Source: Arenicellales bacterium (GTDB lineage: Bacteria; Pseudomonadota; Gammaproteobacteria; Arenicellales; JAJDZL01). From it: a stretch of 64,000 nt of DNA. The notes under the pieces were generated by a model that saw only the letters and a program-made list of their open reading frames with translations, searched no databases and had not been told where the DNA came from. A program made the translations under genes and the position numbers. The stretch is from the NCBI GenBank assembly GCA_963664525.1, contig OY761535.1, positions 3,129,242 to 3,193,241 of the forward strand, written 5' to 3'. This document shows positions 3,526 through 40,431 of the stretch, in pieces (the stretch's first letter is position 1; each line of letters begins with the position of its first letter).

Positions 3526-3538
3526 TGTTCGATCAAAA

Positions 3539-11553: not shown

Positions 11554-11606
11554 TGTCGAATATAGCATGTAGTGTTGGATAGGGCCGTCAAATTCTGATG
11601 TATGCA

Positions 11607-12744: not shown

Positions 12745-13442
12745 ACAAATATCCTTCCGATTAAAATGGCTTGGTATGGTATCGAATCAAAAGCCCAATG
12801 CTTCCATTAAACTATAGGCAGAAGTCGATTTCAATCAAATTTGCGCTCATAAGCAGTGATGAACGAAAATTCGGTAAATTGACGCACGAACACCATTATC
12901 TTGGATTGAAGCGAATTACGAATTGAAGTTTTCGCAATTTGATTAAGTCTGAAAGGCGATAGCTATGTTTTTCTGGTTAGCACGCTGGATTTTTCAAATC
13001 AGCGACGCACGATTGATGGATCTCTTGATGAATGGAGTAGCAGACACATCGGATTATTTTATCAGTACAACTTTCCATGGGAAATTCGAATGAGTCAAAT
13101 CGAAACCATTCATAATGTTAGACTTACATGGCGAAGCAATTTCTATTGATCGGCTTTAACCGTATCTATCATTTGGTACGTGCTAACATTTTGCGTTGTC
13201 GCTTGAAATCAATTGGGTGATGGTGCGGCAGTAATGATGACACTGGGCTCCATACTACAGTACCTAGTTTCATTGGGAATCGTCTTCGCTTCAACACTTA
13301 GCGGATCATCGTCAACACTTGGTTGGCAGTCTGTTGATTTCGTGGCGGCCAATGCCCCAGATTTACACGGTAGATTGACTCGCAAAAGGACGTATAAATC
13401 AACGCGTTTTTCAATTTCTATCAGACATAGAGTTCGCAAATT

Positions 13443-14309: not shown

Positions 14310-14330
14310 AGCTGCTAATGGGTCGACATC

Positions 14331-14963: not shown

Positions 14964-15145
14964 ATCATCCGGCGGGTATTTGCACCGCAAGCCTGCTTCA
15001 TGCATTTGAAGACCCTCTGCTCAGCACAAATTTAATGAGCGAATCACCCAATCTATACAAAATTTAATGTTTCTGAAATACTTCGGCAAGATTCATTTAT
15101 TTAGAATAGGCACATCAACAAATTAATAGTTAGAGGTAATCCTAC

Positions 15146-22959: not shown

Positions 22960-23352
22960 ATGAAATTTAATATTCTGGTCAATGAAGGCCCCTACACGCA
23001 TCAGGCATCGGATACTGCCTATCATTTTGCCAAGGCGGCAATTGATTGTGGGCACGAAGTGATTCGGGTGTTTTTCTATCACGATGGCGTCAACAATGCC
23101 ACGCGATTTGCTTCACCACCCGTTGACGATCGCGATGTTATCGTGCGCTGGACGCAATTGGCTGAAAGTTACGACATTGATCTGGCAGTCTGTGTTGCGG
23201 CTTCGTTGCGCCGAGGGGTACTGGGTGAAGATTCGGCGCACCAATTAGGCATTGCTGAGGTCAATTTGGACGATCACTTCAGGGTAGCTGGATTCGGGCA
23301 CTTTATTGAAGGGGCGATCGTCGCGGATCGGACCTTGGTATTTGGCGACTGA
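22960..23352 (+). CDS. dsrE: Sulfurtransferase DsrE (TusD homologue)
   Basis: 130 aa with MKFNILVNEGPY..; the conserved active-site Cys sits exactly at position 78 (LAVC78VAAS). It is the first gene of an E-F-H-C series. Confidence 0.85.
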   Translation: MKFNILVNEGPYTHQASDTAYHFAKAAIDCGHEVIRVFFYHDGVNNATRFASPPVDDRDVIVRWTQLAESYDIDLAVCVAASLRRGVLGEDSAHQLGIAEVNLDDHFRVAGFGHFIEGAIVADRTLVFGD

Positions 23353-23375
23353 AGACGATCGCGAAACGACAGTGC

Positions 23376-23759
23376 ATGACTAAACGTTTGATGTTCGTTA
23401 ATCGCAGGGCCCCTTATGGCACTGTCTATGGAATGGAAGCGCTTGATGCAACGCTTGCTGCATCCGCGTTTGGACAAGATCTGAGCATGGCGTTTGTGGA
23501 CGATGGGGTGTACCAGCTCAAACGGAATCAGAATCCGTCAGTACTGGGGATCAAACACTACACAAGGACATTTGCTGCGCTGGATGATTTTGGAGTTGAT
23601 CATATATTTGTAGAACAAGAATCGATGATGGAAAGAGGATTGAAACAGGAAGACTTGATGGAAATATTCCGTGAAGATGGCAGCGATGCGTTGACAATTG
23701 TTTCGTCTAGCGAACTTTCTGAAATCATGGAAACGCAGGACGTAATCTTTCAATTTTAG
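23376..23759 (+). CDS. dsrF: Sulfurtransferase DsrF (TusC homologue)
   Basis: 127 aa of the DsrE/F fold (LMFVNRRAPYGTVYGMEALDA), in position between dsrE and dsrH. Confidence 0.8.
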   Translation: MTKRLMFVNRRAPYGTVYGMEALDATLAASAFGQDLSMAFVDDGVYQLKRNQNPSVLGIKHYTRTFAALDDFGVDHIFVEQESMMERGLKQEDLMEIFREDGSDALTIVSSSELSEIMETQDVIFQF

Positions 23760-23767
23760 ATACGGCA

Positions 23768-24070
23768 ATGTTGCACACGATCAACAAATCTCCGACTGAA
23801 CGCCCCAGTTTGCTCAGCTGCCTGAGACTGGCGAAAGCAGGAAGTGACATTTTGCTGATTGAAGACGCGGTCTATGCAGCGCTTAGCGGGACGAAATTTG
23901 CCGAAATTATTGAAAATTCGCTAAACCACCATCAGTTTTTTGTGTTAGAAGCAGACTTGGATTGTCGCGGTTTTGGTCAATCTGAACTGATTGACGGCAT
24001 CACAATGGTTGATTACACGGGTTTCGTATCGCTGGCGGTGAAAAATGATAAGGTTCAGGCTTGGCTTTAG
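23768..24070 (+). CDS. dsrH: Sulfurtransferase DsrH (TusB homologue)
   Basis: 100 aa: MLHTINKSP....LSCLRLA..GSDILLIEDAVYAA. This is the typical DsrH/TusB N-terminus with a conserved Cys. Confidence 0.8.
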   Translation: MLHTINKSPTERPSLLSCLRLAKAGSDILLIEDAVYAALSGTKFAEIIENSLNHHQFFVLEADLDCRGFGQSELIDGITMVDYTGFVSLAVKNDKVQAWL

Positions 24071-24081
24071 GTGCGACAATA

Positions 24082-24414
24082 ATGACACTTGAGTTTGACG
24101 GAAAAGTTTATGAAACGGATACCGAAGGGTTTCTCACGAATCCAGAGGAGTGGTCGGCGCAATTGGCAGAAAAGATGGCGGCCGACGACGGATTTCAATT
24201 GGGCCCTGATCATTGGGAAGCGATCAATATACTGAGGGACTACTATGCGCAGTTCGCCATCGCTCCTCCCATTCGAATTCTTATCCGACACATGGGCAAG
24301 CGTCTGGGCAAAGAAAAAGCGAACAGCCCATACCTTTACGAACTGTTTCCGTTTGGGCCCGCCAAGCAGGCCTGCCGATACGCGGGGTTGCCCAAGCCGA
24401 CTGGCTGCATCTAA
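24082..24414 (+). CDS. dsrC: DsrC (two-cysteine C-terminal arm; TusE/DsrC family)
   Basis: The C-terminus PAKQACRYAGLPKPTGCI carries both the penultimate Cys and the Cys ten residues upstream. That pattern distinguishes DsrC from single-Cys TusE. Start set at ATG 24082 (MTLEFDGKVYETDTEGF). Confidence 0.85.
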   Translation: MTLEFDGKVYETDTEGFLTNPEEWSAQLAEKMAADDGFQLGPDHWEAINILRDYYAQFAIAPPIRILIRHMGKRLGKEKANSPYLYELFPFGPAKQACRYAGLPKPTGCI

Positions 24415-27209: not shown

Positions 27210-27716
27210 ATGACTATGATTAGACACTGTACACCAGACGATTTCGATCGCATACTTGCTATCATCAACAAGGCTGCACAAGCCTATAGGGGCATTATTC
27301 CAAACGATCGGTGGAAAGAGCCATACATGCCCGCTGAGGAACTCGCGGACGAAATTACTGCTGGAGTCACTTTCGACGGCTACGAAATGACCGAAGTGGG
27401 GCTGGTAGGTGTGATGGGTGTTCAGCTTGTCAAGGATGTAGCATTGATCCGCCATGCTTATGTTGCTCCTGAAAATCAGCGTTCAGGAATTGGATCTACT
27501 CTGCTGAACGAGCAATGTGCAAATCTGGATTGTCCGATCCTGGTCGGTACCTGGGCCGCTGCCGATTGGGCAATTGCCTTTTACCAGCGCCATGGTTTCA
27601 AGCAGGTATCGATGACGGAGAAGTCAACATTGTTGAGACGGTACTGGACCATACCAGAACGCCAGATCGAGACTTCTGTTGTGCTTGCTAATGAACGATG
27701 GCGCCTCTCACCATGA
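27210..27716 (+). CDS. GNAT-family N-acetyltransferase
   Basis: Acetyl-CoA motif A, PENQRSGIGSTLL, plus AIAFYQRHGF. ATG 27210 was chosen so that the gene starts after the dsrM stop. Confidence 0.8.
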   Translation: MTMIRHCTPDDFDRILAIINKAAQAYRGIIPNDRWKEPYMPAEELADEITAGVTFDGYEMTEVGLVGVMGVQLVKDVALIRHAYVAPENQRSGIGSTLLNEQCANLDCPILVGTWAAADWAIAFYQRHGFKQVSMTEKSTLLRRYWTIPERQIETSVVLANERWRLSP

Positions 27717-28384
27717 GCGAATTCTCCTTGAATAAAGATACGATACAGGCGCAAGAGGTGTCGGCAGCTACGATTGAGAACTATAACCGTATAGCGCTTG
27801 CTTTTTGTAAAGGCACGGAGAATCATGATGTCAGTCAGAACATCGCTGCCTTACTTGACGCGATCAAGGATGACGGTCCACACGTCATTCTCGATTTTGG
27901 CTGCGGGCCCGGTCGGGATCTTTGCCAATTTAAAGCACTCGGCCACGAGGTGGTCGGTCTGGATGGTTCAAGCGAGTTTGTCGAAATGGCCCGAGCTAAA
28001 TCGGGATGTGAGGTGCTCCATCAAGATTTTCTCAACCTAGATTTACCATTCGCTCGCTTCGATGGGATATTCGCGAACGCTTCTCTTTTTCACATTCCGA
28101 TCAGTCAACTCGACCGAGTCCTGGGCAACCTCGCTGCGACGCTCAAATCTGAGGGCGTATTGTTAAGCTCAAACCCGAGAGGCAACAACGAGCAAGGTTG
28201 GGTCGATGGGCGATACGGTTGTTTCCATGATTTGGAAACATGGCGTGCCCACGTTCGCGCCGCGGGTTTTCGCGAATTGCATCACTACTATCGACCGACT
28301 GGGCGACCGCGAGTGCAACAACCATGGCTTGTCACAGTCTGGCGTAAAAATACTGAAGTCAGTTCGATTAGCATCTCGGCGTAG
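27713..28384 (+). CDS. Class I SAM-dependent methyltransferase
   Basis: Motif I VILDFGCGPGRD, then an acidic residue at GLDGS. ATG 27713 overlaps the GNAT stop in an ATGA arrangement; ATG 27698 is an alternative start. Confidence 0.8.
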   Translation: MSEFSLNKDTIQAQEVSAATIENYNRIALAFCKGTENHDVSQNIAALLDAIKDDGPHVILDFGCGPGRDLCQFKALGHEVVGLDGSSEFVEMARAKSGCEVLHQDFLNLDLPFARFDGIFANASLFHIPISQLDRVLGNLAATLKSEGVLLSSNPRGNNEQGWVDGRYGCFHDLETWRAHVRAAGFRELHHYYRPTGRPRVQQPWLVTVWRKNTEVSSISISA

Positions 28385-28549
28385 GCATTCTCGACCATAA
28401 GTTCCCATGGGTTTAATACCCTGGAATTTCATTGATGCAGATGAACATAGCCTTTCATCTAGAAATTTATACACGTATGGTAAAACCGATCCGGGTATAA
28501 AATCAATAAATAACAATAGGATGACGTCAGTTCAACGGTAAATCTCTGG

Positions 28550-30010
28550 ATGAAGAACCAGCGAAAAACAGGTCGCTTGCGAAACATGGAAAATCTTAAA
28601 AAATCAGTGGTTAAACCGCATTTTCGCTCAGATACCAGCGAATCGGGTCAACTGGCTGATAACTGGCAGGAAATTGCGATCGAAAAGCTCGGTGAACAAG
28701 TTCGATCAAACCGGGCACTTAAGGTTTTCTTGGACAGTTGTGTGAACTGTGGTGCTTGCACTGACAAGTGCCATTATTTTTTAGGTGACGGTGACCCGTT
28801 GAATATGCCAGTTGCCCGCCAAGACTTGATTAGAGGAGTTTATCGCCGGCACTTCACGGTGGCAGGAAAATATTTTCCGAAATTGGTTGGAGCAAGAGAA
28901 TTGACTGAAGAATTACTTGAGGACTGGGGAAAGTATTACTATCAGTGCTCACAGTGTCGCCGTTGCTCCGTGTATTGTCCCTTCGGTATTGACACAGCAG
29001 AAATTACCATGGCTGGTCGCTCAATTCTCGACGCCATCGGGATGAAGCAGCAATACATTCATTCGGTGCTTGACAATGTTGACAGGGCCGGAAACAACCT
29101 GGGCATGATAGGGCCCGCCATCAAAGATACGTTGAATGGTTTGGAGGAAGACGTTTTCGAGGAAACTGGGGTGCATGTGAAGTTCCCGCTTGACGAAGTT
29201 GGTGCTGATGTATTGCTGCTGGTGCCGTCGGCAGATTTATTTGCTGAACCTCATGTTGACGGTTTAATTGGCTGTGCCAAAATTTTTCACCAGCAGGGTA
29301 TCCATTGGACGCTGTCTACCTCAGCGTCGGAAGCGGCCAATTTTGCACTGTTCGTGGGGGACACTGAAAAAATGCAGGCAATGGCTGAACGAGTCAAAGA
29401 CGTGGCGTTAGAGCTTGGTGTGAGAAAGGTTGTTGTTGGTGAGTGCGGCCACGCGTGGCGAGTTGCAAGCAGTTATTGGCCGCAGTTGCTGGCATCGGCT
29501 ACTTCGAACCAATCTGCCGGATTCGAAGTATTGCATATTTGCGAGTTGACTTATGACTTACTTTGCCAACAATCACTGCAGCTTGACAAGTCCGTGCACC
29601 GAGACAAGGTCATCACGTATCACGATTCGTGCAATGTGGCACGCGGTTCACGTATGGGCGAACATCCGCAGGATGTGTACGACATTCCGCGTGCATTGCT
29701 GAAGGCGGCTTGCGAAAACTTCGTTGACATGGCTCCAGAATCGATTCGCGAGCGTACCTATTGCTGCGGCGGAGGCGGCGGTCTTTTAACCGATGAGTTG
29801 ATGGAGATTCGGGTCAGTGGTGCTTTGCCCCGTGTCAGTGCATTGGAGGAGGTTATCACCAATCAGGGCGTCACACATATGGCAGCAATCTGCGCGATCT
29901 GCAAGAGTCAGTTCAGTTCCGTTTTACCTCGCTACGGATTGGACATGAGAATGATCGTCAGTTTACATCAGATTGTTGGAGATGCTGTGGTGTTGAGTGC
30001 GGACAAGTGA
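28550..30010 (+). CDS. dsrK: DsrK (HdrD-like Fe-S / CCG-domain catalytic subunit)
   Basis: Two ferredoxin-type clusters (CVNCGACTDKC, CSQCRRCSVYCP) and CCG-domain cysteines (HDSCN.., YCCGGGGG). Confidence 0.85.
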   Translation: MKNQRKTGRLRNMENLKKSVVKPHFRSDTSESGQLADNWQEIAIEKLGEQVRSNRALKVFLDSCVNCGACTDKCHYFLGDGDPLNMPVARQDLIRGVYRRHFTVAGKYFPKLVGARELTEELLEDWGKYYYQCSQCRRCSVYCPFGIDTAEITMAGRSILDAIGMKQQYIHSVLDNVDRAGNNLGMIGPAIKDTLNGLEEDVFEETGVHVKFPLDEVGADVLLLVPSADLFAEPHVDGLIGCAKIFHQQGIHWTLSTSASEAANFALFVGDTEKMQAMAERVKDVALELGVRKVVVGECGHAWRVASSYWPQLLASATSNQSAGFEVLHICELTYDLLCQQSLQLDKSVHRDKVITYHDSCNVARGSRMGEHPQDVYDIPRALLKAACENFVDMAPESIRERTYCCGGGGGLLTDELMEIRVSGALPRVSALEEVITNQGVTHMAAICAICKSQFSSVLPRYGLDMRMIVSLHQIVGDAVVLSADK

Positions 30011-30545
30011 TCCAGTTGCTGCCCAATATCTTTTGCATCGTACGGAATAGTTGATCATGGAAAATCAATCCGATTTCTTGGAGGGTTCAGATCAATTTTG
30101 CTTCGAGATTATCGGCCTAGGCTTTGGAAGTAGGGTCTTCCCTAATTTTCGTGGGTAGCGGAATTATTGAGTGAGTTCAATGTTGTTTTCGGGCGCGGTT
30201 CATTGCGTGTGTTATTCTTCGAATTAACTCCTCTGCAACACGCCGAACATGCGCACGCGCATTTGAGCCCGTTCTTGTCCTTGGAGAATTTGTTAGTTCT
30301 CCATTGGCCCCGACCGGCCAGGTCAACTTAGCGCTATTGCTGTTGGTACGATTCGGTTTGCTTCTGTGATATCGGTGTTATCCTCATCTACTTACTATCT
30401 GGCTTCTCGAAAAAGTGCTTGGTAACTACAGAATATTATTGCTAATATCCCAATTGCTTTAGTATTTGTGTTGGATGAGTAATTCTTGGTTAGCGTTAGA
30501 CCTCAGCCTACCTTGGGGCAATTATTACCAAAATATTCGCTTAAA

Positions 30546-30605
30546 CGTATATATTGATATTATACGGAGAATAGTATATTTAGTTTTTATACGCTAGATC
30601 GTATA
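30546..30605 (+). promoter_or_regulatory. Candidate HipB operator pair in the hipBA promoter region
   Basis: Two inverted repeats built from the same hexamer: CGTATA-N9-TATACG (30546-30566) and TATACG-N6-CGTATA (30588-30605). They end 17 nt before the hipB ATG. Function is inferred by analogy with HipB autoregulation. Confidence 0.45.
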
Positions 30606-30621
30606 TAGAGAGGCGGTAAGG

Positions 30622-30867
30622 ATGAGAAATATCATACGTAGTAATAAAGATCTTGGTGAATCAATCCGCCGTGCACGCAAGAATAAAGGTTTACGGCAGG
30701 TTGATGTCGCTCGAAAAGCCTCAGTACGCCAGGCACTGGTATCTGACCTTGAGAACGGTATGACTACGGCAAGGTACGACACCGTGATCAAGGTGCTGGC
30801 CGCTCTGGATATGGACTTGTCTATCGTCCCGCGCCGCAAAGCCGGATTCGATCCAACGGAGTATTAA
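30622..30867 (+). CDS. hipB: HipB-type XRE-family antitoxin
   Basis: 81 aa with an HTH (IRRARKNKGLRQVDVARKASVRQALVSDLENG). Its stop abuts the hipA start. Confidence 0.85.
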   Translation: MRNIIRSNKDLGESIRRARKNKGLRQVDVARKASVRQALVSDLENGMTTARYDTVIKVLAALDMDLSIVPRRKAGFDPTEY

Positions 30868-32166
30868 GTGGGACGTAAACGCCACAGACGCATTCTTGAT
30901 GTGTATGTCGGCTCGAGTAAAGTTGGCATGTATTCCCGTGAGCCTAGCGGTGCTATATCGTTTCGTTATGATCCGGACTGGTTGTCATCCGATAAGGCAT
31001 TTCCTATTTCCGTGTCCATGCCGCTGACTGATCGTGTCTGGTCAGGGGAAAGTGCGGCCAACTACATTGACGGGTTGTTGCCAGATGATCGTACCGTAAG
31101 AGAAAAAATTGCTGCCCGTGAGCAGGCAGACAGTTCTGGAATATTTGATCTCCTTGCAGTTCTCGGACGTGATTGTGTAGGAGCACTGCGTTTTATCCCT
31201 GAGGGACTTGATCCTGGTGACCCAACGAATATGGAATATAGACCGGTAAGCGATGATGAAATTGCTGCTCGGATCGCTTCCCTCGCCATCACGCCACTCG
31301 GTGTCCATCTCGATGAAGATGATTTTCGTATCTCCATTGCAGGCATGCAAGAAAAAACGGCCTTTCTCCGGATCAACAATCAATGGCATTTACCACTTGG
31401 GCCTACACCCACCTCTCACATCTTCAAGCCTGCGATGAAAAAAGGCCCGGCAGGCGTCGATTTTTCTGATACTCCCTGGAATGAGTGGCTCTGTCTCGAA
31501 CTGTGCCGTGCCTTGGGTCTTGAGTCGACAAAGGCCGATGTGTTGGTATTCAATGATAAACCCGTAATCGCCATTGAGCGATTCGATCGGGTCTGGAGGG
31601 AAAGGGTACTATACCGGAAACCGCAGGAAGATATGTGTCAGGCCTTAGGGGTTCCACCAGTGCGGAAGTACCAAAGTGATGGTGGTCCGGGCATTGTCGA
31701 CGTACTGAAGTTCCTGAACGGTGCGATTGTCCCATATGAAGACCGCATGGCCTTTATGAAGACACAGGTCGTGTTCTGGTTGTTGGCAGCCATTGACGGC
31801 CATGCCAAAAACTTCTCAATATTTCTCTCACCAGATGGCTACCGACTCACGCCTCTATACGATGTGGTTTCAGCCGCTCCCTGGCCGGAATTTCCGGATC
31901 AGAAGATTAAGCTTGCAATGGCCTTGGGGAGCAAAAACTATTATCGCTTACATCAAATTCAACTCCGACACTTCTATCAGACAGGTCAAAAAGCAGGGTT
32001 ACGTGAGCAGGATATGGATCTTATCTTTTCTAGCCTGCTCGCGAAGATGGATGATGCAATAGCACAAACGGCTGCTTTGGCTTCCAATGCCGGAGTGCCA
32101 GCATCAACAACAGAATTAATTTTGGCTAGTGTGAGTAAACGCGCCAAGATAATAGGAAAGGAGTGA
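30868..32166 (+). CDS. hipA: HipA-family serine/threonine kinase toxin
   Basis: 432 aa. HipA N-terminal coupling region (LDVYVGSSKVGMYSREPSGAISFRYDPDWL, LLPD), SIAGMQEK and catalytic DGHAKNFS motifs. GTG start directly after the hipB TAA. Confidence 0.9.
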   Translation: MGRKRHRRILDVYVGSSKVGMYSREPSGAISFRYDPDWLSSDKAFPISVSMPLTDRVWSGESAANYIDGLLPDDRTVREKIAAREQADSSGIFDLLAVLGRDCVGALRFIPEGLDPGDPTNMEYRPVSDDEIAARIASLAITPLGVHLDEDDFRISIAGMQEKTAFLRINNQWHLPLGPTPTSHIFKPAMKKGPAGVDFSDTPWNEWLCLELCRALGLESTKADVLVFNDKPVIAIERFDRVWRERVLYRKPQEDMCQALGVPPVRKYQSDGGPGIVDVLKFLNGAIVPYEDRMAFMKTQVVFWLLAAIDGHAKNFSIFLSPDGYRLTPLYDVVSAAPWPEFPDQKIKLAMALGSKNYYRLHQIQLRHFYQTGQKAGLREQDMDLIFSSLLAKMDDAIAQTAALASNAGVPASTTELILASVSKRAKIIGKE

Positions 32167-32279
32167 TACACTTCAATGGATTACAAGGGCGGGAGAAATG
32201 CTGCAGCTTGTATAAATTGAAACCGTCGAGGCTGACTCGTTTTCGTTGACCGATGCACTTTCACACTTTTGCCCGCTCA

Positions 32280-32939
32280 CTAATCCCCATATTTATCTGT
32301 ATGCGTTTCATATCCGACGATCAGAACATCTGCTGGTCGCAGGGCAAAAATTCCATTACAAACGACCCCAGCTTGATTATTGAGTATTGACTCAATTGAT
32401 ACTGCATCTTTGAGGTCAAGGTTGCGTGCATCAATGATGATGTTGCCATTATCTGTGGTAAACCCGATACGCAGTTCAGGCAAACCACCCAGTTTGATGA
32501 TTGCGCGACTCACCAAACTTTGTGCGAGCGGGATGACTTCAATTGCAAGCGGAAAATCCCCGAGTACATCCACGACCTTGGTTTCATCGACGATACAGAT
32601 AAATTTTTCACTTGCAGTTGCAACAATTTTCTCACGGGTTAGAGCACCGCCGCCACCCTTGATGAGATGCTTGTTGCGGGTGGCTTCATCAGCACCGTCA
32701 ACATAAATCGGTAAAGTTCCGGTTCGGTTCAAGTCCAGTATTGGAATTCCATGTCCGCGCAAGCGATCTTCAGTAGCTTTGGAACTTGCAACAGCACCAT
32801 CAATCTTGCCTTTGATTTTGGGTAGCAAATCAATAAATTCATTGGCCGTAGAGCCGGTTCCGACACCGACAACATCGCCGATATCGATAAAGTCGAGTGC
32901 CGCTTGTGCCGCGTTTTTCTTCATTCGTTCGAAATTCAT
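32280..32939 (-). CDS. rpiA: Ribose-5-phosphate isomerase A
   Basis: [19 protein letters not shown] and [12 protein letters not shown] motifs; 219 aa. Confidence 0.93.
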
Positions 32940-33065
32940 TGGGTGGCATCCTCTGAAACACTTCGTAAGTGGTTTTTCAATGAATCAATTTTGCAGCAAT
33001 CCGGCCGTTGAATTCGCTCAATTTTTTGATTTGAATAGATATCGGCGCAACAAATCCAAAAGTTT

Positions 33066-34724
33066 TCATTTGTCATCAACCACTTCAACTATTTTGAGAA
33101 TGTGTTTCGCTCGTGAGCACGCGACGTAGTTGAGTCTTCGAGCCCTGTGGTTCGAACCGACCACGGGTGATGTCAGCATGATCACTGCGTCTGCTTCCAA
33201 GCCTTTGAATCGGGCGTGAGATTCGATCAAGATTCCTTCATTATTTCGCCAGGCATCAAGATTACGAGTCACCTTGCTGCGCTTGAACTTCTCTGGCCAG
33301 TCATCAACAGGAAATCCTGGCACCAAAACGGCGATCTGGGACGGACTGAGTCCACCTGTCGTGGGTTTTGATAAATCGCTCACCAGACCCGCAATTTTCT
33401 CAAAGCCCGCTTTTCGAGAATGAACTTGGTAAACATCCAGTGAGTGGGTCAGGACATCAGAATCCTCGTCAATTAAATTGTCACAATAATTTGCGATTTC
33501 GGGCGAATTCCTGCAATTCTTGTAGAGCATAAATGGATCACCCAACTCGCGTGGCAAACGCAATTCTTCTTTAAGATAAAGAATTTGATTGGGATCGAAA
33601 AAGACATAAAAGCAACGTTTGTTGTCCGGATCTTTGAAAATTGAATCCAGACTGTGCCACCAAAGTTCCAGAAAATCCTGACCTTCGTCGACAATGACTG
33701 CATCGTATTTTTCCGACTCGGGTATCAAGTCACAGGCCTGCATCAAAAGATCAGGTGCTATTTCATTCCAAAACTCTCGCCGGTCATCGTGTTGGTTGGG
33801 ATCAAATTCCAGCTTGGTCAACTGACAAAGATCGTGCACGAGTTCGTGATAGGTTTTGATCGTTAACTCCTGTTCAAAGTTTACCTGTGCGGTATGGATG
33901 AGCCAATCTCTCAAGGGACGGTTGTAACACAAAAGTAGTGTTCGCATGTTGGACTGGGCAGACTGCTGTGCTTTTGCGAGAGCCAGTAGCGTTTTTCCAG
34001 TTCCAGCACCACCTTGAATTGACGCTGTTGACTGGTGGGTAAGGATTGTCAACAGTTGTTTTTGTTCCTCGGTCAGCCGATGAAGTCGCTCTTCTTGATC
34101 TTCAATCTCTCGCCATATGACGGGAACAACGTCAAACTTTGGAAACAGTGCGAATTCAATTTTTCTGATCTGTTCTTTACTGAGCGGTTTGTTGGCATTT
34201 CGGCGAAACAGGTTGAAAATGTTGGCGAGTCGGGTTTCCAGTTTAACAAGATCACCAGCATCCATAATTTGTGTTCGAGTAATTCCAGGCGGCACCTGAC
34301 CTTGAAAACTTCCATCAGGAAAAACAACCGCGAAACCATAAGTGAAGTCAAGTTGGGCAAGGTTAAGCCGTTCCTGAATGTGCTTCAAAATCGCGTACAA
34401 ATTGGTTTGTACCTGTTTGAACGGATCCTTATTGAGTGGAATTTTGCTTTTATAGTTGGAAAGTCGCCACCACTGTTCCGTCTCGGGATCAAATCCCAGG
34501 ATTCCACCCTTAACCTCGATGAAAAGCAACCCGTTTTTCGGATCGAGAACAATAAAGTCGCATTCACCTTCGACTAGGGGTCGCTTATTGTGCTTTTCTA
34601 CCCAATTGAAGCTATGAATAATGTTGATTTGATCGGAAAGGTGGCTTGCCAATACATTTGCCACTTTCCTCTCGCTTGAATTTTCGATGGTGGTAGGGTC
34701 AATTGTTGGAATGAATCGTGCCAT
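33066..34724 (-). CDS. NERD-domain nuclease fused to an SF1 (UvrD-like) P-loop helicase/ATPase
   Basis: The N-terminus has a PD-(D/E)xK-like NERD signature (EGECDFIVLDPKNGLLFIEVKGG). It is followed by Walker A GGAGTGKT, Walker B VIVDEGQDF and a UvrD_C-like end (KGLEADAVIM..YVACSRAKHIL). Confidence 0.75.
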   Translation of the reverse strand: MARFIPTIDPTTIENSSERKVANVLASHLSDQINIIHSFNWVEKHNKRPLVEGECDFIVLDPKNGLLFIEVKGGILGFDPETEQWWRLSNYKSKIPLNKDPFKQVQTNLYAILKHIQERLNLAQLDFTYGFAVVFPDGSFQGQVPPGITRTQIMDAGDLVKLETRLANIFNLFRRNANKPLSKEQIRKIEFALFPKFDVVPVIWREIEDQEERLHRLTEEQKQLLTILTHQSTASIQGGAGTGKTLLALAKAQQSAQSNMRTLLLCYNRPLRDWLIHTAQVNFEQELTIKTYHELVHDLCQLTKLEFDPNQHDDRREFWNEIAPDLLMQACDLIPESEKYDAVIVDEGQDFLELWWHSLDSIFKDPDNKRCFYVFFDPNQILYLKEELRLPRELGDPFMLYKNCRNSPEIANYCDNLIDEDSDVLTHSLDVYQVHSRKAGFEKIAGLVSDLSKPTTGGLSPSQIAVLVPGFPVDDWPEKFKRSKVTRNLDAWRNNEGILIESHARFKGLEADAVIMLTSPVVGSNHRARRLNYVACSRAKHILKIVEVVDDK

Positions 34725-35015
34725 CAGTTTTCAAGGAACCTCCTCAATAGGTTTGTGCCAATCAATTGGCCCGGCAAAAGTAGAATGCATCTGTAATGTA
34801 TTTTCACACCGAGTCAAATTCGCAAGTTATTTTGAATCTTGCAAAACGCAGCAAATAATATCAACATTCAGTGAAAATGAGACAAAAGGCGCAGGGCAGG
34901 ATTTGACTAAACTACATTCCTGCAAATCGGACCGGTGAATTCGCTTGGGTTGACATTGGCTGAACCTTTTTGACAAGCAATTGTCAAATTAAACTACACA
35001 GCCAAGTTCTGTAAA

Positions 35016-36416
35016 ATGGACCATAAGTTGTTTCCGAGTCTAAAAACTTTTTCTAAGTCAATAAAGCACCACTTGATGTTTCGCCTCATTCAAATTATTG
35101 TAGTTTTGCAGATTACTCCGAGGGCGGCGCTCGCCCAAGAGCAGGCTGATACAGTGCATGTGTTATCGACACTCGATTGGTGGGTAATGGTCGTTGGGCT
35201 CTTGACGGGAGCGCTGATTTCGTTATTTTGGGTGATTCGTTCAAAGGCATTGCAAACACTGCCTGAATCCGCTAAATCAAGTGAGACAGCGGCTTCGATC
35301 GAGGTAACTGATCCGCTTCCTTCACCAGGACGACGCAGATTGGAAATTTACTCGTTCATTGGTCTTGCTCTCGGTCTGTCGCTAGCCTTAGCACCGCAAT
35401 TCCCTTACGTTTGCACCTTCGGTACTGTCGCAATTATCCTGTTTTGTCTTGCATTACCTTTGTTTGGAATCTTTCAATTTGGCGATGGGAAAGGATTTTT
35501 CATCAACTGGGTCAGGGATAGAACGCTCGCCGTGATCGTCATGCTGGTCTCTGCAACGGTAGCGCTCGCTGTCATAAACAGTCTTTTCGAAGTTCGGTTG
35601 ATCGGTAGCGAATTGCAATTGGTTGCAGGAATTCTTGCTGCAATCGCAATCGGATTTATTGGCGCGGACTTGTTTTTCAGATGGTTTGGTACGAACTCTT
35701 TTGCTGGCGACGAGGGAAACAAGGTTGGGCGCTTGGCTGGCGGCGCCATGGTTGCACTTTCCATTTTTGTCGCAAGTCAAATTCCACAAGTTCCAGCGAT
35801 GTTTCTTTGGGCAGTTTACCTGATTGTTGTGGCTGTATATTGCGGTGCGACTACAAAAGTGAGTCAACCCGCCAATGGTCACCAGCAATTGCTTAAAGGC
35901 GCCGGGCTCGTGATCATGATTTTCGGGGTCGTTGGTCTAGTCAGCGCGTCGTTCGGTTTTCGAAATTTCAGCCAACCGTTCACCCAAGTTTCGACATTGA
36001 TCGCTACTGGAGGTTCAATACCAACCCAACAAATCACAAACTCTTCGACTGAGGTTTTCACCTATGCCAAGTCTATGGATGAGTTTGAGCGGATACTCGG
36101 CGATGCCAGGCAGGAGAATAAACCGGTGGCTATCGATTTTTTCGCGGACTGGTGCCTTGACTGCAAACGAATGGAACGCACGACGCTGAAAGATCCGACC
36201 ATTGTGACAGCACTCACCGAAACTTTCGCCAGCATAAAGATTGATGTGACAGACCCCAATGAACAATTCAGCCGTGAAATTCGAAAGCGATACAAAGTGT
36301 TTGGGCCACCCGCGTTGCTGTTTCTTGATCGGCTCGGGAACCTGACGTCATTCTCACCAACCTACGGTTACCTGGACGTCGACGAACTCACCGACTTACT
36401 GGCAAAAGTACAGTAA
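35016..36416 (+). CDS. Polytopic membrane protein with a C-terminal DsbD-gamma-like thioredoxin domain
   Basis: The last ~130 aa resemble the DsbD gamma domain (KPVAIDFFADWCLDCKRME..VFGPPALLFLD). The upstream ~330 aa are multi-TM but lack the (T/S)PC motifs of the DsbD/CcdA core. Confidence 0.6.
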   Translation: MDHKLFPSLKTFSKSIKHHLMFRLIQIIVVLQITPRAALAQEQADTVHVLSTLDWWVMVVGLLTGALISLFWVIRSKALQTLPESAKSSETAASIEVTDPLPSPGRRRLEIYSFIGLALGLSLALAPQFPYVCTFGTVAIILFCLALPLFGIFQFGDGKGFFINWVRDRTLAVIVMLVSATVALAVINSLFEVRLIGSELQLVAGILAAIAIGFIGADLFFRWFGTNSFAGDEGNKVGRLAGGAMVALSIFVASQIPQVPAMFLWAVYLIVVAVYCGATTKVSQPANGHQQLLKGAGLVIMIFGVVGLVSASFGFRNFSQPFTQVSTLIATGGSIPTQQITNSSTEVFTYAKSMDEFERILGDARQENKPVAIDFFADWCLDCKRMERTTLKDPTIVTALTETFASIKIDVTDPNEQFSREIRKRYKVFGPPALLFLDRLGNLTSFSPTYGYLDVDELTDLLAKVQ

Positions 36417-36605
36417 TCGCATACGCTTTGGGCTTTACTGCAAGGCGCAAATGCAGCGTACCATTACGAAGGTTTGATCCGGGTATGAAGTCAGCGAGTC
36501 ATTTGCTGGACTGGTATAATTTCAAACAATTCATTTGCCAAGACCCAGATTGCATATCCCACTGAATTCAATGCATCTCGTAAATCTGATTTCTCGCTAG
36601 ATATT

Positions 36606-38138
36606 TTGGAATCAGAGTATCTTCAACGCATATTGCTCGCGCGAGTCTATGACATCGCTCAAGACACTCCGCTGGACTACGCCACAAATCTTTCGCGTAA
36701 GCTCAAGCGCGATGTTTGGCTCAAGCGCGAAGACCAACAGCCAATCTTTTCATTCAAGATCCGCGGCGCTTACAACAAAATGTCTCGGCTGTCACCGGAC
36801 GTATTGAAACAAGGTGTTGTCGCCGCCTCAGCTGGAAATCATGCTCAGGGCGTTGCGCTTGCGGGAAAGACGCTAAATTGCCCGGTCACCATTTTTATGC
36901 CATTAACCAGCCCAGAAATCAAGGTTAAGTCCGTCAAGGGATTTGGAGCGACAGTGAAATTGATCGGTGACAGTTATGCTGAAGCCGGCGCTGCTGCAAG
37001 TGAGTTCTGCCAACAAAATGGTCTTTCTCTAATACCACCTTATGATGACCCCGATATCATCGCTGGAAACGGGACAGTGGGCCTTGAAATCATGCGCTCA
37101 GCACATGGAAAAATTGAAGCGATTTTTGTGCCCGTTGGCGGTGGTGGTCTGATCGCGGGAATTGCTGCCTACGTCAAGAGCATCGATAGCAATGTCAAAG
37201 TGATTGGTGTAGAACCGAAAGACTCTGATGCCATGGCAAGGTCCGTCGAGGCTGGAAAAAGAATCATGCTCAAAGATGTCGGAATTTTTGCAGATGGTGT
37301 GGCCGTTAAACAGGTTGGTGAAGAAACATTTCGTCTCGTTCGAAAATATGTTGACGAGATTGTTCGGGTTGATACCGACGAGATTTGTGCAGCAATCAAG
37401 GATATTTTCGAAGACACCCGTTCGATCGTTGAACCGTCTGGCGCTCTGGCAGTCGCCGGAGTGAAGCACTACAGCGCCAAGTTCAACCAAAATGGCAAGG
37501 GATTGGTGGCGGTTAACTCTGGCGCCAACATGAATTTCGACCGTTTGCGCCATGTTTCAGAACGAGCTGAAATCGGTGAACGGCGCGAGGCGATTCTCGC
37601 AGTCACTATTCCCGAACGACCTGGAAGCTTCAGGGAGTTTTGCTCAACCGTCGGCGAGCGAAACATTACCGAATTCAATTATCGTTTTTCGAATACGAAA
37701 AATGCCCATGTCTACGCGGGGATACAGATCAGCAGTCGCGATGAAGTAAACTGTTTGATTGAAGATCTTGAAAAACGTGATTATCCCGTACTGGATTTGA
37801 CAGACAATGAAATGGCTAAAATTCATGTTCGGCACATGGTTGGAGGACCCGCCCCAAAGGCGACTAATGAAAAAGTCTACCGTTTCGAATTTCCTGAACG
37901 TCGCGGAGCACTTTTGGGGTTTCTTGAGAAGATGGGCAGTTCCTGGAACATCAGCATGTTCCACTATCGAAACCATGGTACTGATTTTGGCCGCGTGCTG
38001 TGCGGCATTCAAGTTCCAGCGGATGAAATGCCACAATTTAAGGCATTTTTGAAATTGGTCGGGTACAGTTATATGGAAGAAACTGATAACCCTGTGTACA
38101 GGATGTTTCTGACTGAAAACCCAGAACAAGAGGTGTAA
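36606..38138 (+). CDS. ilvA: Biosynthetic threonine dehydratase (threonine ammonia-lyase)
   Basis: PLP lysine motif FSFKIRGAYN, GGGGLIAG, and two C-terminal ACT-like regulatory repeats; 510 aa; TTG start. Confidence 0.93.
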   Translation: MESEYLQRILLARVYDIAQDTPLDYATNLSRKLKRDVWLKREDQQPIFSFKIRGAYNKMSRLSPDVLKQGVVAASAGNHAQGVALAGKTLNCPVTIFMPLTSPEIKVKSVKGFGATVKLIGDSYAEAGAAASEFCQQNGLSLIPPYDDPDIIAGNGTVGLEIMRSAHGKIEAIFVPVGGGGLIAGIAAYVKSIDSNVKVIGVEPKDSDAMARSVEAGKRIMLKDVGIFADGVAVKQVGEETFRLVRKYVDEIVRVDTDEICAAIKDIFEDTRSIVEPSGALAVAGVKHYSAKFNQNGKGLVAVNSGANMNFDRLRHVSERAEIGERREAILAVTIPERPGSFREFCSTVGERNITEFNYRFSNTKNAHVYAGIQISSRDEVNCLIEDLEKRDYPVLDLTDNEMAKIHVRHMVGGPAPKATNEKVYRFEFPERRGALLGFLEKMGSSWNISMFHYRNHGTDFGRVLCGIQVPADEMPQFKAFLKLVGYSYMEETDNPVYRMFLTENPEQEV

Positions 38139-38139
38139 T

Positions 38140-38361
38140 ATGAGTGATGCGAACGGTGTGGAATTTATTGGACTATACGTTATTCCAGGTGAGGGTACTG
38201 TCGCAGCACTGAGACAATCCGTCGAAACCCAGTTGTTTGATAAACAGGGACTGGAATGGAAAATTGTTGAAAAAAAGAAAAACGGCGAAGATACCAGCGT
38301 TGAAGAACAAGCGCTGGCGCAAGTCAAACACAACGACGTTTCGGGGAACGGATTTTACTGA
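38140..38361 (+). CDS. Hypothetical small protein (73 aa)
   Basis: The ATG comes one nt after the ilvA stop. No recognisable motif; coding status uncertain. Confidence 0.3.
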   Translation: MSDANGVEFIGLYVIPGEGTVAALRQSVETQLFDKQGLEWKIVEKKKNGEDTSVEEQALAQVKHNDVSGNGFY

Positions 38362-38375
38362 TTCTCACCTAAACG

Positions 38376-39134
38376 ATGGTTTGCGCTGCACTTTGGCCGC
38401 TGTCCAGTAGCGCGCCACCCCTGCCTCCCGGAGAGGTGCACCTTTGGTCTGCCTCTTTGTTGTGTTCCAAACTGATGCTGAGCGAGTACGAACACTTGCT
38501 GGACGAGCGCGAAATGGCGAGAGCCAATCGATATGCGCTGGAGATTTCGCGAACCCGTTTTATTTGCGCTAGAGCTATTCTTAAAACGTTGCTCGCCATG
38601 TATACGGAACAGGACCTACAGAGCATTCGTTTTCGCTTGGGCTCACTGGGTAAACCCTATCTGCCGTCAGGGGACGGACCCGAGCTTAAATTCAACTCGA
38701 CAGATACCGCAGATGAAGCACTCATTGCCATTTGCCGCGATGCAGAAATTGGTGTCGATATTGAGTACAAATCGCGCCAGGTGAATCATGCCATTATCGC
38801 CAAACGAAAGTTTACGACTGAAGAATACAAGCAGTACCTTACTTGTTCTCAAAGACAAAGAAGAGAATTTTTCCTGTCAATGTGGACACGTAAGGAAGCT
38901 TACGGCAAGGCCATCGGCGTTGGGATAAAGTATCGATTAAACGAAATTAATCTGACCGATGACGACCGATCGCCTAGCGTCGCAGTTTGCGATACCGCCG
39001 GTGTGGAATGGGAAATCAATCAGATTGAACCGACTTCCGAACTAATAGCCTGTGTCGTTACCGAAGGCAAAGGATGGCGATTTCGATGCCAGCGACTTTT
39101 TCCTCATGGTGAAGTGCCCGTTATTTCGACCTAA
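38376..39134 (+). CDS. 4'-phosphopantetheinyl transferase (Sfp/EntD-type)
   Basis: GKPYL, FNSTDTADEALIAI..IGVDIE and WTRKEAYGKAIGVG (W/F-x-x-KEA-x-x-K) motifs. Confidence 0.8.
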   Translation: MVCAALWPLSSSAPPLPPGEVHLWSASLLCSKLMLSEYEHLLDEREMARANRYALEISRTRFICARAILKTLLAMYTEQDLQSIRFRLGSLGKPYLPSGDGPELKFNSTDTADEALIAICRDAEIGVDIEYKSRQVNHAIIAKRKFTTEEYKQYLTCSQRQRREFFLSMWTRKEAYGKAIGVGIKYRLNEINLTDDDRSPSVAVCDTAGVEWEINQIEPTSELIACVVTEGKGWRFRCQRLFPHGEVPVIST

Positions 39135-39154
39135 ACTGCCCAGTGTTTTGATGG

Positions 39155-39619
39155 CTACTCATATGCCATCGCGTGAATATATTCCCATTCCTCTGGGTTA
39201 ACTGGCGTAACAGAAAGTCTGTTACCGCGTTGTAGAACTCGCATGCCAGATAGTGCAGGTTCTGCTCGTAACTGGGCCAGCGATACGATTTTCGGAAACT
39301 TGCTTTTGAGTTTCACATCGACCATGAGCCAGCGCGGATTGTCTGGATCACTTTTCGGGTCATAGTAGTGCTCAGTCGGATCAAACGCGGTCGGGTCGAT
39401 ATATGCGCCGCGTACGATGGACATCGTTCCTACAATCCCGGGCACTTTGCACCGGGAGTGATAGAAAAATGCCTGATCACCAACTTTGAAATCGTCACGA
39501 AAAAAATTTCGCACCTGGTAATTTCGAATGCCATCCCAGTAATCTGTCTGATCGGGCTCTGCGGCCAAATCATCGATCGAGTAGACATCCGGTTCACTTT
39601 TCATTAGCCAATACATCAT
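39155..39619 (-). CDS. EVE (PUA-like) domain protein
   Basis: 154 aa: YWLMKSEPDVYSIDDL......WDGIRNYQVRNF...GDQAFFYHS is the canonical stand-alone EVE domain. Confidence 0.85.
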   Translation of the reverse strand: MMYWLMKSEPDVYSIDDLAAEPDQTDYWDGIRNYQVRNFFRDDFKVGDQAFFYHSRCKVPGIVGTMSIVRGAYIDPTAFDPTEHYYDPKSDPDNPRWLMVDVKLKSKFPKIVSLAQLRAEPALSGMRVLQRGNRLSVTPVNPEEWEYIHAMAYE

Positions 39620-39628
39620 TGCTCATAC

Positions 39629-40225
39629 TTAATGGGTGAAGTTGTAAATATTTTTTTCTGTGATTGCGCCGCGCAAAGGAATGTCCCAGGCATTGCGGCC
39701 TATCGCCTCAACATGTTGAAATTCATGTGCGAGTCCAATAACGTATGGTCGTTGCCAGTTACGGCCGTGACGCAATTGTCCGAGTGAACGGTCATAATAG
39801 CCGCCCCCCATGCCAATACGATTGCCCTGACTATCAAATGCCACCAACGGTGCGAGAATAAGGTCAAGTTGATTGGCGAAAACCCAGCCGTGTTTCGCGA
39901 ATTTAGGCTCCAGGATTCCAAATCGATTCAAGGTCATATCATCCAAAGACGGCGTTCGTCCGAATAGCAGGCGATTTTCTCCTCCTCGGTACAACACCGG
40001 CAGATAACAGCATTTGTGACGTCGAAGCGCCTGAACAAGGACCTGCGTTGGATCGATCTCGCCGTCGTTTGGCAGGTAAAGTGCAATGGTGCGGCATTTG
40101 AGGTAAAGCGGGTGTTTCTGTACTTGGCTCAAAAGACCGCGCGCTGCCTCGCGCTGTTGATTGGATGTCAAGGCTCGGCGCGCTGCTCGCATGTTCTTGC
40201 GAAGTGTGGTTTGGTATGATGACAT
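39629..40225 (-). CDS. ygfA: 5-formyltetrahydrofolate cyclo-ligase
   Basis: LYLPNDGEIDP and LILAPLVAFDSQGNRIGMGGGYYDR motifs, in position downstream of zapA/6S RNA as in enterobacteria. Confidence 0.9.
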   Translation of the reverse strand: MSSYQTTLRKNMRAARRALTSNQQREAARGLLSQVQKHPLYLKCRTIALYLPNDGEIDPTQVLVQALRRHKCCYLPVLYRGGENRLLFGRTPSLDDMTLNRFGILEPKFAKHGWVFANQLDLILAPLVAFDSQGNRIGMGGGYYDRSLGQLRHGRNWQRPYVIGLAHEFQHVEAIGRNAWDIPLRGAITEKNIYNFTH

Positions 40226-40235: not shown

Positions 40236-40431
40236 CCAGATATTCAGATGCCGCCCGCACGTGCCGTACCAGCCCCCATAGCCTTGAACCGCCATGTTCA
40301 AGTGGGCAACTGGTGAGACAGCTTCAGGTGCTTTGCAACACGGCAAGCTCACAACAGCTGGCTCAGTTTGTTCCCTGGTAAAGTCTTTAGGTTCGAAGGA
40401 AATTAGACCGGTTCAAACACTACAGGCGGCG
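40236..40431 (-). ncRNA. ssrS: 6S RNA (ssrS); ends approximate
   Basis: The gap between zapA and the cyclo-ligase gene has no plausible ORF. On the minus strand it reads ..CACUUGAACAUGGCGGUUCAAGGCUAUGG..GCGGGCGGCAUCUGAAUAUCUGGCG. This matches the E. coli 6S 3' half (..CCUUGAACCAAGGGUUCAAGGGUUACAGCCUGCGGCGGCAUCUCGG..). A 5' CGCC / 3' GGCG closing stem is possible. Synteny with zapA-ssrS-ygfA supports the call. Confidence 0.65.

Follow-up and report, generated by a model that had tools for sequence, protein, structure and literature searches.

The 64-kb stretch of bacterial DNA analysed in this work (hereafter the window) contains, on the minus strand at 33066-34724, a gene coding for a fusion between a NERD nuclease domain and a UvrD-like superfamily 1 (SF1) helicase, which is referred to below as NERD-helicase. 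The analysis points, with a probability of about 0.5, to an autonomous ATP-driven nuclease-helicase immunity gene that resides in the core genome. A role in defence is favoured because the active sites are intact, the protein belongs to a family with defence-related models, members of this family are embedded in anti-phage operons, the family has a patchy distribution, the gene is dispensable, defence and mobile cargo is found at the flanks of its locus, and other nuclease-helicases provide a mechanistic precedent.

Domain architecture of the NERD-helicase protein

According to the open reading frame (ORF) listing and its translation, a single ORF of 552 residues spans the complete region 33066-34724, with an ATG start codon and a GAGGAGG Shine-Dalgarno-like sequence upstream. 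Pfam searches revealed a NERD domain (PF08378) at residues 16-118 (36 bits, gathering cut-off 22.1), followed by matches to SLFN-g3_helicase at residues 235-388 (31.5 bits, cut-off 24) and AAA_19 at residues 226-383 (26.5 bits, cut-off 25.1). The UvrD_C_2 match at residues 505-543 reached 26.9 bits, slightly below its cut-off of 27.4, and UvrD-helicase reached 18.1 bits for a cut-off of 23. The two-lobed helicase core, of about 335 residues, is too short to accommodate the large 1B and 2B accessory domains of UvrD. An earlier note on this DNA had described a NERD domain and a UvrD-like P-loop ATPase in one polypeptide of 552 residues, and both this architecture and all the motifs quoted there are recovered by Pfam and by translation. 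The features of the gene are the following, the nuclease positions having translation-checked coordinates and the helicase motifs being located by translation:

33066-34724, minus strand: NERD nuclease/UvrD-like SF1 helicase fusion gene, 552 residues, stop codon at 33066-33068 (ORF, Pfam, PADLOC, AlphaFold2)
34140-34724, minus strand: N-terminal NERD PD-(D/E)xK nuclease domain, residues 1-195 (Pfam NERD, conservation, model)
34671-34673, minus strand: nuclease residue E18
34557-34571, minus strand: nuclease motif EGECD, residues 52-56
34503-34517, minus strand: nuclease motif EVKGG, residues 70-74
34077-34139, minus strand: inter-domain linker, residues 196-216 (low model confidence, conserved sequence)
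33069-34076, minus strand: compact UvrD-like SF1 helicase/translocase core, residues 217-552 (Pfam, motif conservation, structure matches)
33990-34013, minus strand: Walker A motif GGAGTGKT, residues 238-245
33675-33689, minus strand: motif II DEGQD, residues 346-350
33585-33596, minus strand: motif III DPNQ
33507-33518, minus strand: motif IV NCRN
33195-33209, minus strand: motif V FKGLE
33102-33128, minus strand: motif VI YVACSRAKH, residues 533-541

The AlphaFold2 model of the protein, built on 118 homologs, is of good confidence, with a mean predicted local distance difference test score (pLDDT) of 86.5. The nuclease domain (residues 1-195) is modelled as a mixed alpha/beta fold with pLDDT mostly above 90, and the linker (residues 196-216) at pLDDT below 50. 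The sequence of this linker, KFDVVPVIWREIEDQEERLHR, is among the best-conserved stretches in the close homologs, with E211 and R216 invariant and P201 and E208 nearly invariant; this conserved, low-confidence segment may be an interface for DNA, oligomerisation or a partner.

Conservation of the catalytic residues

Nuclease residues E18, E54, D56, E70 and K72, together with helicase motifs I-VI, are invariant in 28 close homologs. The conservation was also considered in an alignment of 71 sequences that includes 61 distant homologs with 26-39% identity. In this broader set D56, E70 and K72 do not vary, and E18 is found in all the sequences whose alignment covers that position. E54, the Walker A motif, DEGQD, Q380, R405, FKGLE and, in motif VI, the Y..SR residues show no or almost no variation. 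As judged from the sequence, both the nuclease and the helicase active sites are intact and the enzyme looks active. Motifs IV-VI (NCRN, FKGLE, YVAxSRAK) resemble those of the UvrD/Rep/PcrA DNA helicases. The spacing of the NERD catalytic residues is similar to that of E535/D567/E580/K582 in ZwsA (10.64898/2026.04.06.716636).

A Fe-S or Zn cluster formed by conserved cysteines was considered and rejected, with C55, C300, C331, C371 and C414 replaced by A, I, V or L in distant homologs. Among the many cysteines of the protein, only C266 and C404 are widely conserved in the 71-sequence alignment.

Family assignment and distribution

The protein matches over its full length the PADLOC model RTasNERD-Hel (PDLC03813), with residues 1-550 aligned to positions 1-514 of the 519 in the model (E 1e-64, 217.6 bits), and a second PADLOC model, C3a187 'NERD+UvrD', is matched with E 6e-35. 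Both models are matched by all the family members tested (68 of 68), irrespective of their genomic context. Since RTasNERD-Hel recognises every member in any context, its designation as reverse transcriptase (RT)-associated is a label of the family and is not diagnostic for the window gene. The source of this model is cluster 485 of Mestre et al. 2022, a NERD and helicase cluster located beside 7 of 17 UG34 reverse transcriptases, for which the function given is a prediction only (PMC9226505).

A total of 1559 homologs were found at E<=1e-5 in a 90%-identity collection, and 3701 clusters at 50% identity were found with E<=1e-30, nearly all of the best 150 being 530-600 residues long; with these numbers of homologs and clusters, the ORF is not a chance reading frame. 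In the 80 genome loci collected, the family is patchily distributed over many phyla, including Pseudomonadota, Planctomycetota, Chloroflexota, Acidobacteriota, Cyanobacteriota, Actinomycetota and others. One phage record also carries a relative. At NCBI these proteins already bear generic names, for example 'NERD domain-containing protein/DEAD/DEAH box helicase'. None of the NCBIfam equivalogs for repair helicases came near its cut-off, the best of them being HelD, with 20.8 bits for a cut-off of 419, and RecD2, with 10.8 bits for a cut-off of 500.

Relatives embedded in defence operons

In the 80 loci (numbered with the prefix L) genes were called crudely, neighbours were clustered and representatives were annotated, the survey of neighbour clusters comprising 71 loci. 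Among the 67 loci outside the syntenic group of the window gene, at least 29 have DISARM, Druantia, BREX, Tiamat, Dpd-like or Mokosh-like genes within three genes of the NERD-helicase gene. Most of these defence-linked relatives, which are homologs with 26-39% identity, directly adjoin their partner in the same direction, with gaps of -47 to +31 nt. The arrangements found are the following:

DrmA-DrmB-DrmC followed by NERD-helicase: L008, L010, L011
DrmA-DrmB followed by NERD-helicase: L054, L077
Additional DISARM-type neighbours: L012, L017, L070, L078
DruE followed by NERD-helicase: L014, L016, L026, L035, L036, L063
NERD-helicase followed by BrxC-PglX: L045, L051, L058, L074
TmtA (Tiamat) followed by NERD-helicase: L046, L047, L065, L066, L073
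DpdF-like partner: L029, and by clustering L068 and L076
MkoA-like partner: L004, L006

Relatives were also found in 15 plasmid records, some of them beside Druantia-like and DISARM-like genes. In a mobilizable Leisingera plasmid the relative follows a gene for a 2094-residue DEAD/DEAH helicase in a locus that also has a DUF4338 protein, and in a Burkholderia plasmid it is located beside DUF1998 (DrmB-type), helicase and methyltransferase genes.

That NERD-helicase pairs with at least six unrelated systems speaks for a module that works on its own and against a subunit dedicated to one of them. NERD-helicase is not a named component of Druantia type IV, defined as DruE, DruF and DruL (PMC8565338), or of ARMADA type II, which ends with the RelE-UvrD protein ArmD (PMC12458937). 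This kind of embedding has been used as a predictor by Payne et al., who validated 7 of 9 embedded candidates (10.1101/2024.01.29.577857). NERD is absent from the text of the modularity-network preprint. The resemblance to single-gene defence factors, put forward in the earlier note as an analogy, now rests on homology, namely the PADLOC family models and the members located inside DISARM, Druantia, BREX, Tiamat, Dpd-like and Mokosh-like operons, and the survey of neighbourhoods proposed there has found recurrent, tight linkage to defence operons.

Two different arrangements downstream of NERD-helicase were observed at loci of the clade that is sister to that of the window gene (L006, 9688-14643; L004, 9692-12929; L084, 7901-10805). 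One has a 1651-residue polyvalent protein with RNase H-like, Upf1/MkoA-like helicase, DSP-phosphatase and ADP-ribosylglycohydrolase domains, and the other has a separate protein without known identity and a phosphatase-ADP-ribosylglycohydrolase protein. These loci may constitute an undescribed conflict system of two or three genes.

A core-chromosome slot conserved in ten genomes

The window gene and its closest orthologs occupy a fixed slot, in which the EVE, ACPS, ilvA and dsbD-like genes lie on one side of NERD-helicase and rpiA on the other. This slot is conserved in 10 genomes, down to 43% identity between the NERD-helicase proteins. The gene is divergent from the dsbD-like gene, and rpiA is located downstream in the same direction. 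Three of these loci (L001, L002 and L023) belong to Arenicellales, and the window lineage is probably also Arenicellales, within the Gammaproteobacteria. The immediate neighbours in the window and the identities of the slot orthologs to the window protein are the following:

32280-32939, minus strand: rpiA (Pfam Rib_5-P_isom_A, E 4e-51), 126 nt downstream of NERD-helicase and co-directional
35016-36416, plus strand: DsbD-like thioredoxin-domain membrane protein (Pfam Thioredoxin_7/Thioredoxin_2), divergent upstream neighbour
Window: 100% identity
L081: 74%, with a periplasmic-binding-protein gene between NERD-helicase and rpiA
L001: 67%, rpiA side confirmed, dsbD-like match about 6 kb upstream
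L090: 65%
L082: 64%, dsbD side alone kept
L002: 46%
L083: 45%
L089: 45%
L085: 43%
L023: about 42-45%, gene split by an insertion sequence (IS) element

The rpiA gene directly follows the ortholog in L001, L002, L083, L085, L089 and L090; in L081 one gene intervenes, and in L023 rpiA lies about 3 kb beyond. Orthologs of the dsbD-like gene adjoin NERD-helicase, or are one gene away from it, in L002, L023, L081, L082, L083, L085, L089 and L090. The gene had been described in the earlier note as standing alone, in agreement with its intergenic gaps in the window (291 nt upstream and 126 nt downstream) and with the lack of a conserved partner in the 10 slot genomes.

In neighbour-joining (NJ) trees, which were calculated without bootstrap, the slot proteins form one clade with a single nested relocation (L086). 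This clade lies inside the defence-embedded family: its sister clade pairs with MkoA-like or phosphatase-ADP-ribosylglycohydrolase proteins, and the next branches are DISARM-linked and DruE-linked. Identities between the window and L081 are 74% for NERD-helicase, 86% for RpiA, 87% for IlvA and 50% for the DsbD-like protein. The corresponding values against L002 and L083 are 45-46%, 69%, 76% and about 50%. Synonymous divergence (dS) is saturated even against the closest ortholog, at 74% identity, so that only the ranks of nonsynonymous divergence (dN) are usable; against L081, dN is 0.17 for NERD-helicase, 0.08 for rpiA and ilvA and 0.37 for dsbD. The divergence of the gene thus tracks that of its neighbours, which together with the dN ranks indicates a long vertical inheritance under purifying selection, and the divergence among orthologs down to 43-46% identity implies a very long fixation at one slot.

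In L023 (5487-8948 of OX638343.1, an Arenicellales metagenome-assembled genome), a DDE_Tnp_1_4 transposase gene on the opposite strand (6479-7906; PF13701, E 6e-152) interrupts the ortholog at about residue 250, leaving its N-terminal part at 5487-6251 and its C-terminal part at 8097-8948. This natural knockout indicates that the gene is dispensable and not essential.

The relocated member of the slot clade (P0021; L086, 7825-9621) is followed by a gene for a 598-residue protein with methyltransferase domains and a weak HNH_4 match, which resembles a fused restriction-modification enzyme.

Cargo at the flanks of the slot

The L090 flank (1-4234) carries a PLD-SNF2 helicase gene and a type IIG Eco57I-like restriction-modification gene. 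The L082 flanks (1-5351 and 8838-15686) carry an integrase, transposases, DUF6088, a pair of UvrD-like (1042 residues) and DEAD (676 residues) helicases, and a gene with matches to DruA and to transposase DNA-binding domains. A softer form of the idea that the context is defensive survives in these data, in that the slot flanks take up variable mobile and defence cargo in several genomes, hipBA being that of the window. The locus thus has the appearance of a minor hotspot for integration.

Upstream region and transcription

The divergent intergenic region shared with the dsbD-like gene (34725-35015, strand not assigned), with the GAGGAGG ribosome-binding site next to the ATG codon, presumably holds the NERD-helicase promoter. 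The sigma-70-like promoter matches upstream of the gene are weak and no more frequent than in shuffled controls. No terminator-like site was found on the minus strand between 32940 and 33065, in a terminator scan that performed no better than with shuffled controls. Regulation by the SOS response was rejected: the region upstream of the gene in the window lacks a gammaproteobacterial LexA box (CTGT-N8-ACAG), and the orthologs share no conserved motif there.

A GAAC-N4-GTTC palindrome was found 58 nt upstream of the ortholog start, perfect in L002 (about 7942-7953) and with one mismatch in L083 (about 6942-6953). Weaker copies are present in L082 and L085, and it is absent from the window, L001 and L081. 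This palindrome was not used as evidence for SOS control, and may be a regulator site specific to the L002/L083 sub-lineage.

Comparison with known defence systems and structures

The window protein shares with RTasNERD-Hel and C3a187 a full-length homology and the order of an N-terminal NERD domain and a C-terminal helicase. It differs from the former in that the gene is alone in a core-genome slot, with no reverse transcriptase in the window. No recurrent RT-like neighbour cluster appeared in the 71 loci, and the family is found beside DISARM, Druantia, BREX or Tiamat genes far more often than the name RTasNERD-Hel implies. A UG34 reverse transcriptase was also rejected as partner, none being present among the window genes and the model label matching members in any context.

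Nhi of Staphylococcus and AbiO are also stand-alone single polypeptides with an N-terminal nuclease and a SF1 helicase. By analogy, Nhi is a plausible working analogue, in which phage replication intermediates would be degraded. However, the earlier suggestion of a Nhi-type protein does not hold as a family assignment: the Nhi and AbiO models cover only residues 217-266, about 50 residues around Walker A, with 43.6 and 47.7 bits versus 217.6 for RTasNERD-Hel, and they reach E 1e-10 in only 1 and 5 of 68 family members, respectively. The protein is not a member of either family by sequence.

PADLOC matches to GajB are at the motif level only (E 6e-7 or weaker), and there is no GajA-like neighbour. 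The GajB and HelD chains have in common with the window protein the UvrD-like motifs V and VI and a compact helicase core, but GajB has no nuclease domain and needs GajA, and HelD is an RNA-polymerase recycling factor whose NCBIfam model is far below its cut-off for the window protein. ArmD has a RelE-like RNase instead of NERD, and its position at the end of ARMADA type II is similar to that of the relatives found downstream of DruE or DrmAB.

Sequence matches to solved structures comprise only helicase cores (HelD, SLFN11, GajB). The best fold matches are SLFN11/14, Upf1, UvrD, RecD2 and Dna2 (Foldseek E 6e-16 to 1e-9, TM-scores 0.35-0.45, identity 11-17%), a mixture of the SF1A (UvrD-like) and SF1B (RecD/Upf1-like) subgroups. 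SLFN proteins and Dna2 also combine a nuclease and a SF1 helicase in one protein, but SLFN, Upf1 and Dna2 differ in nuclease fold and domain order. Neither the sequence search nor the fold search found the NERD plus SF1 architecture among solved structures, and the viral fold library gave only generic SF1 helicases.

A NERD effector is also present in HEC-02 (an ABC ATPase and a separate NERD protein), ZwsA (VHS-DUF647-NERD-S4) and TALON, in which a NERD endonuclease is paired with YprA-family helicases. NERD has been experimentally tied to defence in HEC-02 (10.1101/2024.01.29.577857) and in ZwsA (10.64898/2026.04.06.716636). These three systems differ from the window protein in that the motor is of another kind or on a separate protein; none is a NERD-SF1 fusion, and ZwsA targets RNA. 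The window gene is one more of an already known kind, the single-polypeptide nuclease-helicase defence candidates, in a family that already has PADLOC models. What goes beyond the known is the breadth of the embedding, over at least six defence systems, and the fact that one clade has long been fixed in a slot of the core genome.

Proposed mechanism and alternative explanations

In the mechanism proposed, the UvrD-like SF1 motor would load on nucleic acid, most likely DNA, and translocate, feeding or positioning the DNA for cleavage by the N-terminal NERD nuclease. NERD-helicase would work without a dedicated partner protein. Foreign DNA would be recognised by free ends or by replication-type junctions between single-stranded and double-stranded DNA, and not by sequence or modification, by analogy with Nhi, Hna and DruE-DruH, the helicase-nucleases of one or two proteins that have been reported to act on replication-type DNA structures. 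The family would be a self-contained immune module repeatedly inserted into, or appended to, unrelated anti-phage operons, and one copy would have settled between the dsbD-like gene and rpiA, being then vertically inherited as a single-gene innate defence against phage or plasmid DNA. The architecture, the invariant catalytic residues, the family membership, the embedding of distant relatives, the fixed slot, the purifying selection and the dispensability are observed here, whereas the DNA substrate, the structure-based recognition of foreign DNA and the biological role in defence are inferred.

Several observations weigh against an immunity gene of this kind. A free-standing nuclease-helicase without a modification partner has no evident means of discriminating self from non-self. 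RNA helicases (SLFN11/14, Upf1) are among the best fold matches, so that DNA is the likely rather than the certain substrate. It is atypical for a defence gene to keep a single core-genome slot in 10 genomes whose proteins differ down to 43% identity, as is a divergence proportional to that of housekeeping neighbours, with dN between rpiA/ilvA and dsbD. The window is otherwise occupied by housekeeping genes, such as those for glutamine synthetase, AdoHcy hydrolase, SAM synthetase, guanylate kinase, DsrE and DsrC, and no defence island was found in the rest of its 64 kb. With no terminator predicted in the 126-nt gap, the gene may be co-transcribed with rpiA. Finally, experimental work on the NERD-SF1 fusion family was not found in the literature searched.

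It may be considered, tentatively, that a mobile immune module was captured by the Arenicellales core genome and is now either a partner-free innate immunity factor or a repurposed genome-maintenance enzyme. The second outcome taken alone, a domesticated housekeeping enzyme of defence origin that acts in end resection or in the processing of stalled forks or flaps in the manner of Dna2 or AddAB, with no role in immunity, is rather unlikely, although it is the chief alternative to the defence reading. It would account for the fixed position among housekeeping genes in 10 genomes at identities down to 43%, for a divergence in proportion to the neighbours under strong purifying selection (the gene is better conserved than the dsbD-like gene), for the lack of a partner gene in the clade and for the co-directional rpiA gene with no predicted terminator in between, and the fold matches include the nuclease-helicase Dna2, UvrD and RecD2. 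However, the L023 ortholog is split by an IS element and a member of the clade has been relocated in L086, there is no conserved SOS/LexA box upstream, links to defence operons are found in the sister clades and in all the deeper branches, the family is patchy and not universal across bacteria, and no NCBIfam repair-helicase model comes near its cut-off.

RNA-directed surveillance, in which a Upf1/Schlafen-like RNA helicase core would bring the NERD nuclease to phage transcripts or RNA phage genomes, seems improbable. The top fold matches are SLFN11, SLFN14 and Upf1, the Pfam SLFN-g3_helicase match is above its cut-off, the NERD domain of ZwsA has been reported to cleave RNA phage genomes (10.64898/2026.04.06.716636), and in the sister clade the partner protein has a MkoA/Upf1-like helicase domain. 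Nevertheless, the TM-scores to SLFN and Upf1 are just 0.35-0.43, the UvrD-like cores of HelD and GajB are among the solved structures matched by sequence, and the host systems of the relatives (DISARM, Druantia and BREX) target DNA. The likeness of motifs IV-VI to those of the UvrD/Rep/PcrA DNA helicases argues in the same direction.

A low probability is also given to a non-autonomous component that would serve, in trans, a multi-gene system located in another part of the genome, such as a UG34 reverse transcriptase or the core of DISARM or Druantia. The best PADLOC model does derive from a cluster beside 7 of 17 UG34 reverse transcriptases (PMC9226505), and translational coupling to DrmC, DruE, BrxC or TmtA genes is seen in relatives at 26-39% identity. 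However, none of the genes in the 64-kb window codes for a reverse transcriptase or for DISARM, Druantia, BREX or Tiamat, the 10 slot genomes have no conserved partner in common, the RTasNERD-Hel label is not diagnostic (68 of 68 members match in any context), and the pairing with at least six unrelated systems is hard to reconcile with the role of a specific subunit.

The hipBA genes and other features of the window

The hipBA neighbours cited in the earlier note are located beyond rpiA:

30622-30867, plus strand: hipB (HTH_3)
30868-32166, plus strand: hipA (HipA N- and C-terminal domains)

Their distance of 0.9 kb from NERD-helicase was correctly given, but the putative defence patch around rpiA that had been built on it is not supported as a conserved association, as hipBA is absent from all nine syntenic relatives. 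Nor does the NERD-helicase gene itself belong to a small defence patch, given the conserved core slot, the vertical inheritance and the housekeeping genes that make up the rest of the window. In L081 and L090 the gene for a 4Fe-4S protein and rpiA are 2-64 nt apart, and in the window both are separated by 2.27 kb with hipBA. This adjacency, together with the absence of hipBA from the relatives, identifies hipBA as a lineage-specific insertion, and its link to NERD-helicase is coincidental. A functionally linked mini defence island of NERD-helicase and hipBA around rpiA is thus very improbable and largely refuted by synteny: the 0.9-kb distance and the other mobile and defence cargo at the slot flanks of L082 and L090 speak for it, but hipBA is missing in 9 of 9 syntenic relatives, forms a 2.27-kb insertion between otherwise adjacent genes, and lies beyond rpiA on the opposite strand.

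The insertion (30011-32279) consists of hipBA and a 0.6-kb non-coding leader, between the convergent 4Fe-4S protein gene and rpiA. No convincing flanking repeats or att sites were found around hipBA, and there is no tRNA gene in the window. Just upstream of hipB (30534-30607) there are two palindromes of the TATACG-N6-CGTATA type, TATTCGCTTAAACGTATATA and TATACGCTAGATCGTATATA, 54 nt apart, which look like putative HipB operator sites. The region 30011-30500 has no ORF of 60 or more residues and no Rfam or tRNA match, with an AT skew of -0.25 in the 30000-30499 bin, and may be a remnant of the element that brought hipBA.

A 6S RNA gene (40248-40431, minus strand; RF00013, 61 bits) was found immediately upstream of the 5-formyltetrahydrofolate cyclo-ligase gene (39629-40225, minus strand), and this classic ssrS-ygfA arrangement confirms the core-chromosome context. 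A PADLOC scan of the other 44 window proteins, those outside 27698-40225, gave single matches to RtcR/PspF-type sigma-54 activators, RT-Protease_XI (E 1e-15) and PDC-S12 (E 6e-9), which are probably generic AAA+ or protease domain matches and not defence genes. DsrE-family and DsrC sulfur-oxidation genes are present in the window (approximately 22960-24414), and DsrE, DsrH and DsrC are also found near the slot, downstream of rpiA, in L081 and L090; a sulfur-oxidising gammaproteobacterium is the probable source of the DNA.

Significance

Nhi, Hna, DruE and other nuclease-helicases made of one polypeptide are coming to be seen as sensors and effectors that recognise replication-type DNA structures, and the NERD-helicase family, which is large, uniform in architecture, computationally flagged and located inside at least six defence systems, can be considered in this framework. 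Should all of the family (about 3700 clusters at 50% identity) prove to be an autonomous single-gene defence, it would be among the more widespread of the candidate systems, and its frequent embedding would imply that classical systems contain many 'accessory' genes that are systems in their own right. If the protein were a repair enzyme instead, a function would be defined for thousands of proteins annotated merely as 'NERD domain-containing protein'. The window gene is a practical test case, being compact and stand-alone, with an intact predicted active site and an IS-disrupted ortholog as natural comparator. Defence predictors based only on context would miss a NERD-helicase located in a housekeeping slot, and a defence-type gene that behaves like a core gene bears on the domestication of immune modules.

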